Assembly (NCBI GenBank): GCA_038831915.1
Contig: JAWBKB010000004.1
Coordinates: 42,253 to 106,252, forward strand
Direction: 5' to 3'
Source: Candidatus Caldarchaeum sp.
GTDB lineage: Archaea; Thermoproteota; Nitrososphaeria_A; Caldarchaeales; Caldarchaeaceae
Length of the DNA stretch: 64,000 bases
The stretch's first letter is position 1; the number at the start of each line of letters is the position of its first letter. Under the pieces are notes generated by a model. The model was given only the letters and a program-made list of their open reading frames with translations, ran no database searches and was not told the DNA's origin. Below, one piece after another: positions 4,196 to 63,663 of this stretch. The translations under genes were made by a program, and so were the position numbers.

Positions 4196-4230
4196 GGGCC
4201 CATAGCTCAGCCAGGTTAGAGCGGCCGGCT
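4196..4230 (+). pseudogene. tRNA 5' half only (Ile/Lys-like), ending just before the anticodon
   Basis: GGGCCCA-TA-GCTC-AGCCAGGTTA-GAGC-G-GCCGG-CT gives the acceptor 5' strand, D arm and anticodon-stem 5' strand, then unrelated AT-rich sequence; no 3' half seen. Confidence 0.8.
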
Positions 4231-4642
4231 ACGATATTATATTCTTTGATGTGATGTTGTTCTTCTTTTTTCTCGGCTTTTTTCTTAATACTCTGTTGCG
4301 GTAGGGACATCTATCCCTGTTCTCGAACGTTTGATGGCATACACTGCAGAATGACTGTCCTCTGCTGTATTGTGGATGGATGCCTGAGGGTATGGAAGGA
4401 GATTCTTCATAGTCTTTATAGTTGAATCGTGGTGTTCCATCCTCAACCCACACATCTATCCTAATCTGTCTCCCGTCGTTAGCCTCGTAATGAGGCAGGT
4501 TTTTAAACATGCTGGGTATTCTAAGCCTAAAACCAGCCGATACATCGTATCTTCCTTTAAAATCCTCCCCCTTACACAACCACCATGATACCATGTCTTC
4601 AGCATTTCGTGAAAGATGGTAATTTGCTCCAGTAAGCTGCAC
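4229..4642 (-). CDS. Hypothetical protein, possibly decayed, ending in a Zn-ribbon-like basic segment
   Basis: ORF with CSVCHQTFENRDRCPYRNRVLRKKPRKKK; lies in the accessory island. Confidence 0.3.
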   Translation of the reverse strand: MQLTGANYHLSRNAEDMVSWWLCKGEDFKGRYDVSAGFRLRIPSMFKNLPHYEANDGRQIRIDVWVEDGTPRFNYKDYEESPSIPSGIHPQYSRGQSFCSVCHQTFENRDRCPYRNRVLRKKPRKKKNNITSKNIIS

Positions 4643-4660
4643 AAGGGTTACGGATACGTC

Positions 4661-5400
4661 TTAGACATGATTGAAACCCCAGTGGTCTAGGTCTGTTGTG
4701 CTGAAGGTTCTGAACTCCCTGACCATGACGTAGTCTAGGTCTGTTAAGAAGGTCATGGACCCTATCCTGCTTCCGTCATCGCCTTTGAAGACTGCTTTTA
4801 TTCTAAGCTCGGCCTTAAGCCTTCCGACCGGAGAGTCCTGAGGAGGATTGACACTCAGGTTGAAGTATGTGTCGAGGGGCTTGGGTAGACCCTGCCCCGT
4901 GCAGATTGCCAGAACCCTATAGGCCACTCATACCCCGACACCATAAGCTTTATGCTTGTTATGTTGAAGACACCCTGCTCGAAGTTCTTCAGCCTGACCA
5001 AACCCCATCCAGCTCCTCCAGCATGTATGTCTCCCTGCCAGCTGAGAAGGTCTGAGACAACCCTCCAAAACCCACCAGCCTCCCTCAAAAGACATACTGT
5101 GAAAACCTCTCCTATTGAGAACCTTCTCTCACCATGGGTAAACCTATAACCGCTTCCAGTAATATAATAGGTGTAGTGCCATGCGTAGCCCTGTATCTCA
5201 TCATAACCCGTCATGTTTATGACTGACGAGGCCCTGTGGCCTGGGTTATCTAAGTTGACAGAGGCTCCTACTATGGGCTGCTGGTTAGAGCAGTCCAAAA
5301 CCCTTACATAAAACTTACCGTATGGTGTTCCAGAAGGGGAAGTGGTGCCCGCACTGCAGCAACATAGTTGAGAGGCTGTACCAAGCCTATAGTGACAGGG
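4661..5400 (-). pseudogene. Frameshifted remnant of a beta-rich, probably secreted or surface protein
   Basis: Overlapping ORFs 4855..5298 and 4661..4927 in different frames; FYVRVLDCSNQQPIVGASV resembles a carboxypeptidase-regulatory-like domain start. Confidence 0.4.
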
Positions 5401-5930
5401 TTGTGTTCATAATAGTGGCCGGGGGTATACAGGTTGTGTGAAGGCTAGTTGAAGCGGCTCAGGAGGCTGAGAAACATGATAGTGTCAATCATATAGTTTT
5501 AGACAACTGTTGTAATATCATGCCTATTTTTAGATAGCTGTCGAAGCAAAAATTGTCATGAAAACTCTACGGTGTTTCCTACGCTTCAACAGCCATTACT
5601 ATGGGTTCTGCTGCTTTGGGCAAATTGGTGTTCGACGGCTGTCGTTCGTCTGAAACAACACCTGATTCACGTAAATTTCGGCTTTCTACACAGTGTTTTC
5701 TCCATGTGTTATGGTAGTACGTTTCGGAGAATTTTTGACATTTTGAAACCCTGCCTAAATCCCTGAAGTTTCGCCTACCCACAGAGGTGGAGTGTAAAAA
5801 TAATGACGCTTTACGTCAAACGTCTAAGCATAATCAGTACAACCTTAGCAAAACCTGTCACTGCTCTCCAGTGTTTCGCCTCCACAGTACATTTATCTGC
5901 TTAAATCCATGTGAGTTGAACAAACATGTA

Positions 5931-6090
5931 ATGAGCGGGACGATGGTCCCGTGATGGAAGACCTGAGGCCATCCCCTCCGGACGGGGAAGGGATGTGAAG
6001 GCTTAGGGTCGTCCCGCGAACACACATGGGAAAACTCCGCCAAAAACAAACCCTCACCCACACCCGCCGTAAAAGGCGGCCACCCCATTC
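5931..6090 (+). ncRNA. Candidate structured non-coding RNA or mobile-element end
   Basis: GC-rich intergenic segment with GCGGGACGA/TCGTCCCGC outer stem, ATCCC/GGGAT inner stem, CCGCC-GTAAAA-GGCGG hairpin and an upstream CTTAAAT box. Confidence 0.45.
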
Positions 6091-6362
6091 AGAGATATCG
6101 TGGGATGGCGGGGGAAAGTTTGGCTGGAACCAGTCCTTGGGACGGTTCGCTCGGACCGACAGGCGTGCAGTAGGGAGACAGACGATTAAGATAACATCCA
6201 GAAGATGATAGACGACGTCCTCCACATCCATTCCCAAACACCCCTCAACATTTTCCCCGATGGGAGGGCCTTCCGCTGGAGAACGGTTCTTCAATACTCT
6301 GGCTGGAGGCTATGAAGAAATGACTACCCCGAAAAGAGGCTTATAAACCTCTCGGGAGAGAA

Positions 6363-7142
6363 GTAAGAAGGTTCTTCGTTGATGTTCACACGTCTGCAAA
6401 CGGTCGTAGAGGGAAGGCGCATCTTGTCTTCGACGGACATCAGTGTGTTAAGACGTCTCGTCTTGTGGATGTTCCCGCAGGTGAAGGTGATGAGGTCTAC
6501 GTTGACGTCATACCTTCAACCATGTATGACGATGTTTCTACGCTTCTAAGCCGTGGAGTCAGGGTTTTCAGGCTGAGGAGAACAGACATCATAGCCGCTT
6601 ACAGAGACAGGTTCTCACTACCGAAGAACGACGAAAACGACGCTAAAATACTATCGATGGTTGAAGGCGAATGCTTCGTGGACGTTTCAGCAAAATACGT
6701 GGAACTGATGAAACTCTTAGAAGAATACAACAAACAACTCAACCTCCTAAAACTGTTGAAACAGTTCAAAACATCCGCAGAAGCTATAAAACCCATACGT
6801 AGAAACAAAAACAGGCTGGCACGACAGATAATAAGCATGGCAACGAACACAATAAGCATATACAGGCCTTTATGCGAGACTCTCGGTTTATCAGACGACT
6901 GTCTCTATGGAAAGGTTGCTCTAGCAGACCTCCTACTACACGTAGACTTCACGACTGGTCTGAGAAAAATCATCTGCTACACCGGACTCTACAAACCAAA
7001 CAACCGCAAATACAACCATCGACTGAAACAGGCTGCCCACTCCCTTGCATTAAGCCACTACAGGAAAAACAAGGTCAAAGCCAGACACATACGAAAACTC
7101 CTAAAAACAATCAAACAAACAATAGCTGGAGGCCCGGCCTGA
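6363..7142 (+). CDS. Compact IS110-family-like protein (RuvC-like DEDD domain, helical linker, Tnp/Nop-like domain)
   Basis: Frame stays open upstream of GTG 6465 and reads RRFFVDVH (first acidic motif); also VYVD, KNDENDAKIL and ICYTGL. TTATAAA box at 6341. Start codon uncertain (GTA at 6363). Confidence 0.7.
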   Translation, partial: VRRFFVDVHTSANGRRGKAHLVFDGHQCVKTSRLVDVPAGEGDEVYVDVIPSTMYDDVSTLLSRGVRVFRLRRTDIIAAYRDRFSLPKNDENDAKILSMVEGECFVDVSAKYVELMKLLEEYNKQLNLLKLLKQFKTSAEAIKPIRRNKNRLARQIISMATNTISIYRPLCETLGLSDDCLYGKVALADLLLHVDFTTGLRKIICYTGLYKPNNRKYNHRLKQAAHSLALSHYRKNKVKARHIRKLLKTIKQTIAGGPA

Positions 7143-7264
7143 CAACGGGGAAAAACCAGATGAAGGCCGGGCAATAGAGCGCCAAACGCCATATAGGCGA
7201 TACGCCAGGCAATTCACGGTTTTCATCCAGCTTCCCAGACGTTGCCAGATGAAGGGCCTCCAGC
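7125..7264 (+). ncRNA. Candidate guide or bridge-like RNA overlapping the 3' end of the IS110-like gene
   Basis: Stems 7125-7135/7254-7264 (11 bp) and 7132-7140/7164-7172 (9 bp); CCAGATGAAGG repeated at 7156 and 7245. Confidence 0.45.
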
Positions 7265-7398
7265 CAAACTCTCCCCTCATTTTTCCCTTTCGGACATATT
7301 CTTATATAAGCGCCGTTGGCTTATTTAGCTAGGGGCTCTATTCCTGGAGTTGTTTGAACGTATTTAAATAACGGCGTTATAAATCGTGCGATAGAACC

Positions 7399-63560: not shown

Positions 63561-63663
63561 GCGGCGGTCGTCTAGCCTGGTAGGACACCAGCCTGCCACG
63601 CTGGGAGTTCTGCGGGCGTTTCGCTCCGGACCCGAGTCGCGGGTTCAAATCCCGCCCGCCGCA
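63561..63663 (+). tRNA. tRNA-Gly(GCC) with a 29-nt intron in the variable loop (about 63608-63636)
   Basis: GCGGCGG/CCGCCGC acceptor stem, CCAGC-CT-GCC-AC-GCTGG anticodon arm, GGTTCAAATCC T arm; the insert forms a BHB-like motif. Confidence 0.9.

Follow-up and report, generated by a model that had tools for sequence, protein, structure and literature searches.

In archaeal box C/D RNPs, the inactive RuvC-like domain of Nop5 docks fibrillarin, and the K-turn guide RNA is bound by L7Ae. A RuvC (DEDD) domain combined with a Nop-like domain is also found in the IS110 proteins (IS621, 8wt6; ISCro4, 9t56), which are mobile, contain a catalytic-Ser loop and use a structured guide RNA with separate target and donor loops. 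TIGR-TasR (TaTasR, 9mty), with a RuvC domain, a coiled coil and a Nop domain in about 270-290 aa, has no such Ser. It is served by an array of 36-nt units, in which two 9-nt guides with a loop element between them address opposite strands of a contiguous 18-bp site (Faure et al. 2025, PMC12045711). The rules described for TaTasR are 9-nt spacers on opposite strands, tolerance of gaps up to 2 bp and a staggered cut with a 3' overhang (PMC12045711).

The origin of introns at odd positions and of broken tRNA genes in archaea has been an open question since their discovery. In Caldiarchaeum subterraneum, filled and empty sites were compared in fosmid clones (Sugahara 2012, PMC3293823). A 1,868-bp insertion extends there between a 5' fragment of tRNA-Thr(GGU), comprising positions 1-27, and position 27 of a tRNA that was rebuilt and gained an intron at 24/25. 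Its ORF of 813 bp, of which there are seven copies, was called a putative DNA recombinase by SVMProt, and the element was linked to pNOB8-type plasmids (PMC3293823). That population study showed the insertion to cause the intron and the fragment; its account of the insertion does not say what recognises the tRNA, and names no RNA, RuvC/Nop fold or guide-target rule.

The DNA analysed here, referred to as the window, is a stretch of 64,000 nucleotides from a Candidatus Caldarchaeum sp. genome. It contains an ORF followed by a hairpin RNA, and we consider it likely that the two form the targeting module of a Caldarchaeales mobile element aimed at tRNA genes. In our literature search, neither Caldarchaeales nor tRNA introns were linked to IS110, TIGR-Tas or an RNA guide; the supplementary Nop-family lists of TIGR-Tas lay outside this search and may include the family. 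The features of the locus are as follows; C-numbers denote contigs of the same genome and L-numbers loci carrying copies of the element.

4196-4230 (+), tRNA 5' fragment comprising positions 1-33, preceded by a TATA-like box of its own (pattern scan; no T-arm downstream)
4231-4574 (+), left-end module of the element, a repeated sequence (Blast, own genome)
4575-6326 (no strand), additional DNA separating the left-end module from the ORF module
6324-7142 (+), RuvC, coiled-coil and Nop-like ORF without Ser loop; acidic D20, D61, D103 and D106 conserved
6327-6377 (+), 51-nt block, conserved, in which a hairpin encloses TTATAAA (6343-6349); candidate promoter or site of recognition
7123-7278 (+), guide RNA gene, a long hairpin of 156 nt (covariance model, covariation, folding energy)
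7176-7184 (+), guide segment A, AGAGCGCCA, in sense orientation relative to tRNA positions 21-29
7202-7210 (+), guide segment B, ACGCCAGGC, reverse complement of tRNA positions 30-38
7279-7284 (+), T-run (7280-7284) closing the conserved module, a likely transcription stop (alignment of 14 loci)
7285-7329 (+), outward-facing tRNA-type promoter region, TTATATA at 7302-7308, plus GC
7330-7362 (+), host DNA, 3' end (~10 codons) of a gene for 246 aa, the main part of which is at C10:50806-51519

The initial annotation had described an ORF with RuvC-like acidic motifs and without a Ser-Gly loop, and this is confirmed. The stop-to-stop frame 6324-7142 (+) comprises 272 codons, with VDVH at 6378-6389 (+) and with VYVD and KNDEND also present, and the residues following YTGL are YKPNNRKYNHRLK, in which there is no Ser-Gly. 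The family consists of 193 clusters at 50% identity. The loop is absent after GL(Y/F) in all 41 aligned sequences, where the chain enters the next helix directly, and likewise in 11/11 relatives of a smaller alignment. Some of the aligned copies, forming a distant subfamily, are only 30-36% identical to the window protein. Of the 41 sequences, at least 90% retain each of D20, D37 and D61, and every one retains K101 and D106, while D103 is replaced by Ala or Ser in one subclade. Neither a Ser nor a Tyr nucleophile is found among the conserved residues of these 41 sequences. The window frame is under purifying selection, with dN/dS values of 0.14-0.36 in 11 of 12 pairs and the remaining pair saturated. 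The loss of the Ser loop is a trait of the entire family. The gene is multi-copy, and its copies are often broken or located at contig ends.

The AF2 model of the window protein (pLDDT 86.6, pTM 0.82) has the fold that had been expected, RuvC plus Nop, with a predicted coiled coil between these parts as in TasR. The top Foldseek match is TIGR-TasR 9mty (E 9.9e-8), followed by ISCro4 and IS621. Superposition of the model with VIA-align gave Z 14.0 for TasR 9mty_B over 234 residues (rmsd 4.9), Z 12.5 for the TasH Nop domain, Z 11.6-11.7 for IS621/ISCro4 over 243 residues and Z 6.9 for Nop5 (PDB 3pla). TasR has a residue identity of 13% with the window protein and does not match it at the sequence level. 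The range of the alignment sets D20 opposite D11 of TaTasR, whose D11A mutant is inactive (PMC12045711). The Nop-type C-terminal domain, the coiled coil and the archaeal origin are shared with Nop5. However, the structural match to Nop5 is much weaker, and the RuvC-like part of the present protein retains its acidic residues; it does not belong to the box C/D Nop5 proteins, which combine an inactive RuvC-like domain with a K-turn guide RNA.

It is important to compare the family with IS110 as well. [quoted passage not shown] The motifs K-x-D-x-x-D-A and (A)GL align: IS621 is the best match of the family profile among PDB sequences (E 0.042), and this profile alignment pairs KsdenDA with KTDTVDA and GLy with AGLTP. 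Together with a weak Pfam match to DEDD_Tnp_IS110 in one relative (E 0.0098, below threshold), this is what could be said for a decayed IS110 transposase in which the Ser loop was simply lost, the fallback reading of the initial annotation. That reading is contradicted by the absence of the loop from every aligned member, the feature in which the family differs from IS110, and by the dN/dS values; in addition, none of 40 proteins scanned passes the Pfam threshold, PF01548 (DEDD_Tnp_IS110) and Transposase_20 not being matched above it. We give it next to no credence.

The second component of the proposed targeting module is the RNA. The initial annotation had pointed to structured flanks and suspected an RNA partner, and both suggestions hold on the 3' side of the gene, where a conserved hairpin RNA with readable guide segments was found at 7123-7278. 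The fold of this flank has an energy of -66.1 kcal/mol (z -5.1), which was equalled in 0/200 shuffles. In the alignment of the RNA, 96.2% of cells are paired, and 6 compensatory pairs were counted compared with 2.0 +/- 1.1 in shuffles. The hairpin shares its first 20 nt with the end of the ORF, where a conserved AGGPA* tail is encoded. Every full-length gene copy has a copy of the hairpin RNA 3' of it; the covariance model (R1) finds 8 sense copies in the same genome, and among 34 sources it gives 29 sense matches, located 3' of the ORF also in the subfamilies of 30-36% identity. The conserved module ends near 7284, as judged by comparison with an empty tRNA upstream region at C19:26890 of the same genome.

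The apical loop of the hairpin holds two variable 9-nt segments, A and B, in the layout CAA-U-[A]-AA-CG, small hairpin, CGA-U-[B]-AA-UG. One variable loop is seen, in place of the separate target and donor loops of IS110; the remaining internal loops are conserved and might still serve in recognition of the element's ends. The CAA/CGA and CG/UG flanks of the guides fall within the motif sets described for stem-loop tigRNAs (preprint 10.64898/2026.09.09.750476), but they are 12 nt apart, compared with the box-C/box-D spacing of 9 nt given there. The RNA differs from that of TasR in this spacing and also in its organization, each gene having one guide unit, set in a 156-nt hairpin that overlaps with the ORF at its 3' end; a TRF search of the whole window found no TIGR array. 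A box C/D reading of the 3' RNA was considered and rejected. Its CUGA and two GAUGA strings, which resemble K-turn motifs, pair with UUCAUC in the consensus fold, and the distant subfamily has other pairing sequences in their place; being base-paired and not conserved in the other subfamily, the GAUGA strings are not box C. In an Rfam search of the window only two tRNAs were recognized, plus chance-level matches near the locus. Approximately 4 raw reads cover 7144-7255 in data set X4 and none in X5, but these are reads of relatives and too few to decide either way; RNA-library contigs of relatives cover parts of the locus sparsely.

The nature of segments A and B became apparent when guide k-mers were compared with the right flanks of the elements, which led to the match with tRNA. 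Because A has the sense of the tRNA and B is its reverse complement, the two would pair with opposite strands of one 18-bp site. Such pairing is predicted from the sequences, and its geometry would agree with the TaTasR rules. In the window copy, segment A is identical in 9/9 positions to the tRNA-Met gene of the same genome at C21:10474 and in 7/9 to tRNA-Ala(GGC) of relatives. The reverse complement of B, GCCTGGCGT, matches positions 30-38 of tRNA-Ala(GGC) in 9/9 positions in 7 related genomes. ARAGORN confirmed tRNA-Ala(GGC) in 4/4 fetched loci, and a control pattern gave 0 matches. Within the same genome, no site matching segment B of the window was found.

A strict scan of the genome was performed with 16 guide pairs; it replaced an earlier scan allowing for wobble, an intron and a mismatch, which was swamped by chance matches. 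All five zero-mismatch matches, involving four guides, fall in tRNA genes and at identical tRNA positions. The L002/C34 guide matches tRNA-Asn(GTT) perfectly at C1:148609 and again at C19:26961, where the site is split by an intron after the fourth base of A. The L012 guide perfectly matches tRNA-Thr(GGT) at C34:452, the L013 guide tRNA-Leu(CAG) at C1:97426 and the L082 guide tRNA-Arg(TCG) at C9:57391. The number of perfect matches expected by chance is estimated at <0.05. Letter-shuffled guides gave 2-7 matches per replicate, a count made at up to 2 mismatches and not of perfect matches alone, and two controls of wrong geometry gave 3 matches each.

The guides were also compared with the adjacent tRNA in 19 parsed RNAs. 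The reverse complement of B agrees with the anticodon loop of the tRNA directly downstream in 8/8 positions in L005, L008 (=L074), L018 (=L080), L012, L013 and L085, and in 7/8 positions in L011, L034 and L082. The guides of L002 and L075 do not fit the adjoining tRNA, and those of L009, L027, L034 and L020 have no convincing target. In L094 the adjoining tRNA-Ala is on the opposite strand and has no intron. For the 30-36%-identical subfamily, an unbiased 8+8 search for guide segments gave mostly self or chance matches, and among the matches listed there was none to a tRNA for its loci L003 and L004.

A correspondence between a mobile element and tRNA sequence could have a different basis, in which a protein-only integrase acts and the loop segments are an element-borne copy of the tRNA att site. 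Archaeal integrative elements do carry tRNA-derived att sites, and the 2012 study (PMC3293823) read its element in this way. In the RNA described here, however, the segments are not collinear with the tRNA, A being in the sense orientation and B inverted with a conserved hairpin between them, and the CAA/CGA and CG/UG flanks inside a covarying RNA helix have the layout of a tandem guide. The modelled fold is also that of RNA-guided proteins and not that of a tyrosine integrase. This explanation appears extremely unlikely.

The perfect and intron-less tRNA-Asn target at C1:148609 coexists with its matching guide in the same genome, which counts against cleavage by the module. The copy with this guide may be inactive, its ORF being truncated at a contig end, or targeting may be non-lethal, or the complex may bind without cutting. 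The last possibility, extended to the whole family, would make the complex an RNA-guided binder that represses or marks tRNA genes, with its link to insertion being historical. Catalytically dead, transcription-repressing TasR proteins have been described (preprint 10.64898/2026.09.09.750476), and the loss of D103 in one subclade would also fit. We judge such a regulator to be very unlikely, in view of the family-wide conservation of D20, D61 and D106, of the many copies, which like mobile DNA are frequently broken and situated at contig ends, and of the introns and fragment ends located inside the site.

These introns and fragments provide the second link between the targeting module and tRNA genes. 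The intron is located exactly at 24/25, as fixed by comparison of the intron-less L080 (=L029) with the intron-bearing L018, and in the neighbouring tRNA genes this position falls inside the 18-bp site. Position 33 is the last one retained in the tRNA 5' fragments of the window, of L008 and of C33:6733 in the same genome. In L008, positions 25-33 are found on both sides of the insertion, like a target-site duplication. In L012 a 270-codon frame adjoins a gene for tRNA-Thr(GGT) that has its intron at 24/25. The layout of the 2012 element, namely an ORF of ~813 bp, a tRNA with a 24/25 intron and a 5' fragment on the far side, is found in L012, L008 and L018, whereas the window retains the fragment and the ORF and has lost the tRNA. 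Judged by this layout, the 2012 insertion is most likely the same kind of element.

The fold, the conserved RNA with its covariation, the complementarity of guides and tRNA with its geometry, the position of the intron and the ends of the fragments are thus shown. On this basis the following mechanism can be proposed, of which we infer the RNA binding, the cleavage, the insertion and the factor that joins the DNA. The RuvC, coiled-coil and Nop protein would bind the 156-nt RNA. Guide A would pair with the antisense strand opposite tRNA positions 21-29 and guide B with the sense strand at 30-38, so that, as in TIGR-TasR, both strands of a contiguous 18-bp site would be read. The RNP would then make a staggered break within this site, where the element would end up inserted. 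The element would come with a tRNA promoter of its own, a 5' exon (positions 1-24) replacing the original one and, at its end, a hairpin of ~30 nt. The hairpin would stay as an intron at 24/25 and the tRNA gene would be restored, while the original 5' part of the tRNA would be left behind as a fragment. Since the intron splits the 18-bp site, the repaired gene would no longer be a target.

In its most specific form, the proposal is that the Ser-less RuvC-Nop protein, with one tandem-spacer RNA, cuts tRNA genes near 24/25 and 33/34 and inserts its own element, the hairpin of which becomes a spliceable intron. We put this forward tentatively, at somewhat less than even chances. The general mechanism, in addition to the coexisting tRNA-Asn target and the guides that do not fit, has against it that the 24/25 and 33/34 junctions are each within ~1 nt of the TaTasR rule and are not strictly symmetric, that D103 is lost in one subclade, that many copies are broken and that the spacing of the boxes is 12 nt.

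The same arrangement of site and intron might be produced by a nuclease that joins nothing. In such a homing or drive cassette, the RNP would cut intron-less alleles, and homologous recombination of the host would copy the cassette together with the intron, using as template an allele that has both. The lack of a Ser or Tyr nucleophile among the conserved residues would be explained, TasR as the closest structure is a hydrolytic nuclease, and the intron within the site would protect the carrier allele. However, simple allele replacement would leave no duplicated tRNA 5' fragment, and such fragments are present in the window, in L008, on C33 of the same genome and in the 2012 clones; the positions 25-33 on both sides of the L008 insertion also speak against it. 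A cassette of this type is considered unlikely.

If insertion by the element is accepted, it would be RNA-guided insertion without a serine recombinase step. It would also give a molecular origin for the non-canonical D-arm introns and the scattered tRNA fragments of archaea, and introns at 24/25 and 30/31 might represent immunity against re-targeting. The element may thus explain how some hot-spring archaea acquired introns in their tRNA genes and fragments broken off from them. The rule of recognition can be read from the sequence, as positions 21-38 of the tRNA are spelled by two 9-nt RNA segments encoded beside the gene. The multi-copy gene within an inserted element and the targets, which are the host's own tRNA genes, distinguish the family from TasR. 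It fills the gap between IS110 (mobile, with Ser) and TIGR-Tas (non-mobile arrays, without Ser), being mobile, with a single guide, without Ser and archaeal; the related Nop5 arose in archaea. A protein of ~260 aa with one re-codable 18-bp guide and possible insertion activity is of practical interest.

The window copy itself, which the initial annotation had regarded as a possible functional system, is probably inactive. No in-frame ATG, GTG or TTG precedes GTG 6465 in the window ORF, so that standard gene calling yields a protein of only 225 aa, from which the VDVH strand is missing; there is no start codon that keeps D20. Some relatives, unlike the window copy, have a GTG or ATG a few codons ahead of FYVDVH. 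The guide is a hybrid, with A fitting tRNA-Met and B fitting tRNA-Ala(GGC), and the partner tRNA exon and its intron are gone. The region 7285-7329 is homologous to the upstream regions of tRNA genes in L008, L010, L034 and C19 of the same genome, and its terminal GC corresponds to the first two bases of the tRNA exon, after which the rest of the tRNA gene is missing. The sufC side is conserved in 13/13 genomes of the genus, and synteny is lost at 7330. Contig C10 carries the other half of the gene that is interrupted here, adjoining other repeats. The window site is thus rearranged and does not provide a clean pair of filled and empty sites.

A TATA box had been assigned to the ORF, and a TATA-like TTATAAA is indeed present in the 51-nt block. 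This block is almost invariant in 12/12 aligned copies, including those with proteins of 30-36% identity. Its conservation despite the divergence of the proteins suggests that in the apparent N-terminus, PRKEAYKPLGREVRR, it is probably the DNA or RNA that is conserved and not the protein. The 18-bp inverted repeats that had been noted around the ORF are real, with arms at 6111-6128 and 7259-7276 (18 nt, 94% complementary). As boundaries of the element, or transposon ends, they were rejected: all copies in the genome have the right arm at their 3' end, but the left arm occurs only in the window and in the related locus L018, so the repeat does not mark the termini.

The left arm belongs to the extra DNA at 4575-6326, which also contains other repeats (4768-5127) and a block common to L018 (5894-6234); its three ORFs have no Pfam match. 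The fragment at 4196-4230, where neither Rfam nor ARAGORN calls a tRNA, matches the 5' portion of the intact tRNA-Met at C21:10474 with 91% identity over 35 nt and is probably the displaced 5' part of the tRNA gene entered by the element. The left-end module that follows it has Blast matches on contigs C19, C1, C33, C12, C18 (three), C2 and C17. This module is located between the tRNA 5' fragment and the ORF in L008, and just upstream of the ORF in L009, L010 and L024.

The frame that carries the RuvC and Nop signatures in the window is the following.

6324-7142 (+): ORF of the RuvC-Nop protein, an open frame of 272 codons

The motifs VDVH, VYVD and KNDEND, named in the initial annotation, are all found in this frame. 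Its first ATG, GTG or TTG is GTG 6465, and since a start is absent before this point a standard gene call gives 225 amino acid residues, the same as the database entry of the protein, P0001. The Ser-Gly loop is indeed absent, as YTGL is followed by YKPNNRKYNHRLK. Searches with the window protein gave zero matches in Pfam and NCBIfam and none of significance among PDB sequences.

The genome that contains the window (34 contigs, 95.6% complete) has seven matches to the protein, three from the window's own subfamily and four at 31-35% identity; two of the former three, at 86-88% identity, are truncated where their contigs end. Across the taxonomic family the protein is matched in 11 of 18 genomes, up to 24 times in a single genome, and many of these matches are fragmentary or sit at the edge of a contig. 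A large protein database holds 16 relatives, those with names being hypothetical proteins of Candidatus Caldarchaeum or Nitrososphaerota, and 193 clusters were found when 1.84 billion representatives were searched with a profile. None of 39 full-length family representatives passes the Pfam thresholds; one has a sub-threshold match to DEDD_Tnp_IS110 (E 0.0098). The consensus of 41 aligned sequences reads (F/Y)VDV ... Y(V/L)D ... KSDENDA ... GL(Y/F) ... YN, where K101 and D106 are invariant, D20, D37 and D61 are present in at least 90%, and D103 is replaced by Ala or Ser in one subclade.

It is important to compare this family with a decayed IS110 transposase, the fallback explanation of the initial annotation. 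Some copies are broken: that at locus L009 has a stop codon within KSD*ND, and that at L008 lacks the first strand and is interrupted by an internal stop. The Ser loop is found in none of the 41 aligned sequences, and in 11 of 12 pairwise comparisons dN/dS lies at 0.14-0.36, the remaining pair being saturated. Loss of the serine is thus a property of the family under purifying selection, and the window protein is a member of a conserved Ser-less RuvC-Nop family and not a degenerate transposase.

The AlphaFold2 model, calculated with an 11-sequence alignment as input (pLDDT 86.6, pTM 0.82), consists of a beta-alpha N-domain, two long helices and a helical C-domain. In a Foldseek search of the PDB the best match is TIGR-TasR (9mty, E 9.9e-8), followed by ISCro4 and IS621 at about 1e-5 to 5e-4. 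The VIA-align comparison gives the same order: Z 14.0 for TasR (234 residues aligned), 12.5 for the Nop domain of TasH, 11.6-11.7 for IS621 and ISCro4 (242-244 residues), 7.4 for phage RuvC and 6.9 for Nop5. The predicted fold is that of RuvC plus Nop, as had been proposed, with TasR nearest. At the level of sequence, the best PDB entry for the family profile is IS621 (E 0.042); KsdenDA is aligned with KTDTVDA, and GLy with AGLTP, which precedes the Ser loop of IS621. The segment bearing this serine is present in IS621 but deleted in the window protein.

Alignment of the 3' flanks of 14 loci revealed a conserved stretch of about 150 nt. It begins inside the final codons of the ORF, which explains the conserved AGGPA* tail of the protein, and it ends with CCAGCCAAAC-N-CUCCCC followed by a T-run. 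RNAalifold folds it into a single long hairpin of 43 pairs. In an alignment of 13 sequences, 96.2% of cells pair, compared with 27-41% in slid controls, and changes on both sides occur at 6 pairs, against 2.0 +/- 1.1 in shuffles, none of 500 of which reaches 6. The window sequence has a folding energy of -66.1 kcal/mol (z -5.1), in agreement with the structured flank noted in the initial annotation; the 18-nt inverted repeat reported there is also present (arms 6111-6128 and 7259-7276, 94% complementary). A covariance model built from the same 13 sequences finds the RNA, in sense and 3' of the ORF, at eight places in the genome, and also in 29 of 34 sources. These include subfamilies only 30-36% identical, in which all three main helices are rebuilt from sequences that differ yet still pair.

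The apical loop of the hairpin has the form GGCAAU-[A]-AACGCC..GGCGAU-[B]-CAAUGC, and the only hypervariable parts are the two 9-nt segments A and B. Segment A corresponds to tRNA positions 21-29 in sense (the 3' strand of the D-stem, position 26 and the first part of the anticodon stem), while B reads as the anticodon loop and stem positions 30/31 in reverse complement. Since A is sense and B antisense, pairing of both with the tRNA itself is impossible; what they fit is the tRNA gene, one strand each. The half-sites abut, 18 bp in total, when the conserved C after B is counted.

When 16 guide pairs were searched strictly against the genome, with up to two mismatches allowed, five matches had no mismatch. 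All five lie in tRNA genes in identical register: tRNA-Asn(GTT) twice, tRNA-Thr(GGT), tRNA-Leu(CAG) and tRNA-Arg(TCG). Six further matches had one or two mismatches; five of these lie outside tRNA genes and the sixth overlaps the tRNA-Thr match on contig C34. Letter-shuffled guides gave 2-7 matches per replicate, a pooled count of 0-2 mismatches at any location, and two wrong-geometry controls gave three each. The adjacent tRNA was compared for 19 parsed RNAs, several of them orthologous. The reverse complement of B agrees with the tRNA directly downstream at 8 of 8 positions in six independent loci and at 7 of 8 in three; in the same loci A, compared by eye, shares 7-9 of its 9 positions with the spliced tRNA, and most differences are G:T or U:G compatible. 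The guides match the spliced sequence, and the tRNA-Asn guide matches both the intact gene on C1 and the insert-split gene on C19. Taken together, these comparisons indicate that the family has a single tandem-spacer guide RNA whose guides point at tRNA genes, so the RNA-guided system suggested initially stands. Cleavage, and the way in which DNA would be joined, are inferences; the same holds for the role of the TATA-like block, for the start codon and for how the distant subfamily encodes its guides. In two metagenome contigs (L094/L095) an intron-less tRNA-Ala(CGC) gene lies on the opposite strand, its 3' end towards the right end of the element, and the guide is only partly like that tRNA (A 6/9; B 7/9 plus two G:T).

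Most same-strand tRNA genes that follow the element contain a hairpin insert of about 30 nt after the D-stem GAG, with the sequence AAAATATTAC...GTAATATTTCTGCAn or a variant. Orthologous tRNA-Lys loci with the insert (L018) and without it (L029, the same locus as L080) place it unambiguously at 24/25, after the fourth base of the A half-site. By the same comparison with L029/L080, the genome's own tRNA-Lys(TTT) (C7:63939, -) has a different insert, of 24 nt, at 30/31, exactly between the half-sites of the relatives' Lys-type guide. The orthologue of this gene in relative G005 lacks the insert. The two tRNA-Asn(GTT) genes also differ, C1:148588 being intact and C19:26939 having the 24/25 hairpin intron; upstream of the latter there is an element-type region, but neither an ORF nor a guide RNA.

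At three sites, tRNA 5' fragments lie on the opposite side of the element, all stopping at position 33.

Window 4196-4230: tRNA 5' fragment, ends at position 33
L008:997: tRNA 5' fragment, ends at position 33; its positions 21-29 equal A of the orthologous L074 (9/9)
C33:6733, own genome: tRNA 5' fragment, ends at position 33

At L008, positions 25-33 flank the element on both sides with one mismatch, resembling a 9-bp target duplication. Two ORF-less mini-elements, L082 (G009:C4) and L085 (G005:C52), have a tRNA 5' fragment joined directly to the RNA gene; the fusion point shares ACAGCG, and an intron-bearing tRNA-Arg gene comes next. Neither C33:6733 nor C33:462, both tRNA-Thr-like 5' fragments, has a 3' half. 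One of the two stops at position 33, and after it comes the repeat that is also found at the C10 contig end.

These introns, fragments and duplication agree with the insertion described in the relevant passages of Sugahara et al. 2012 (PMC3293823), where clones of a single natural population were compared. There, a tRNA-Thr(GGU) 5' fragment is separated from a rebuilt tRNA-Thr, which has gained an intron at 24/25, by an insertion of 1,868 bp; this includes a repeated region of 545 bp and an ORF of 813 bp, the latter with seven genomic copies. Site-specific recombination by a plasmid-derived integrase was proposed. Those passages give neither a protein fold nor an RNA, and both are added here.

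The layout of the guide, two segments for opposite strands, is that of TIGR-Tas as outlined in PMC12045711, where the two spacers, A and B, are 9 nt long and pair with one strand each, and gaps of 1-2 bp are tolerated. The interval between motifs is 9 nt in TIGR-Tas but 12 nt in the present RNA. TaTasR is described in the same source as making a staggered break with 8-nt 3' overhangs, cutting 3' of the nucleotide opposite the fifth spacer base. By analogy, position 24/25 is where this rule would nick the antisense strand, to within about 1 nt.

The window copy is made up of the following parts.

4196-4230: tRNA fragment, leftmost part
4231-4574: left-end module, repeated in the genome; just upstream of the ORF in L008, L009, L010 and L024
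Between this module and the 51-nt block: other DNA, about 1.7 kb, including a block common to L018 (5894-6234) and the left repeat arm
6327-6377: conserved 51-nt block with TTATAAA, listed ahead of the ORF
3' of the ORF: RNA gene, then T-run
7285-7327: tRNA-type promoter region, resembling that before the own tRNA-Asn at C19; GC after it
7330-7362: last ten codons of an unrelated gene, its body on contig C10

The split gene codes for 246 residues, and in relatives its place is immediately upstream of sufC. Its codons 1-238 stand at the C10 contig end (C10:50806-51764), followed by other repeats, while the last ten or so follow the element. The promoter region and GC run into the end of this unrelated gene, which indicates that the site has been rearranged and has lost its partner tRNA exon and intron. 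The guide is a hybrid. Its B matches tRNA-Ala(GGC) at 9/9 in seven related genomes (a reversed control pattern gave 0 matches), and ARAGORN confirms this tRNA in all four loci fetched; its A matches the own tRNA-Met (C21:10474) at 9/9 but the relatives' tRNA-Ala(GGC) at only 7/9. The full 18-mer has no site in the genome within two mismatches. In view of the missing exon and intron, the rearranged site, the lack of a start codon and the hybrid guide, the window copy is probably a relic despite its intact frame.

Several copies and genomes have a pair of genes just upstream of the ORF, coding for an SPPY-motif protein and a 105-residue protein (L027:242-1491, L021, L011, L030, L015/L016, L003), neither of which has a Pfam match. 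The SPPY motif is typical of DNA methyltransferases. The stop of the 105-residue gene is in frame with the ORF in three contexts, including the window (…LWLEAMKK* then LPRKE…). Copies in relative G011 (L067-L071) are about 1,610 bp long, and their 5' part, 596 nt in length, holds a divergent ORF of about 190 residues that may be PCNA-like, judging from its end, ...YQAPRIE. A 137-nt piece of this part recurs inverted about 700 nt further upstream. In two cases (L021 and L027; L012 and L002) one chromosomal locus is occupied by different subfamilies in different genomes, and this arrangement suggests that elements replaced one another through their conserved ends.

Two minor features of the window were also recorded. 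A sub-threshold Rfam match to CRISPR-DR24 at 5583-5656 (-), with 22.3 bits, E 0.37 and a 53-nt insertion, is probably due to chance. The tRNA match at 63561-63663 (+) spans 103 nt and is therefore probably an intron-containing tRNA gene.
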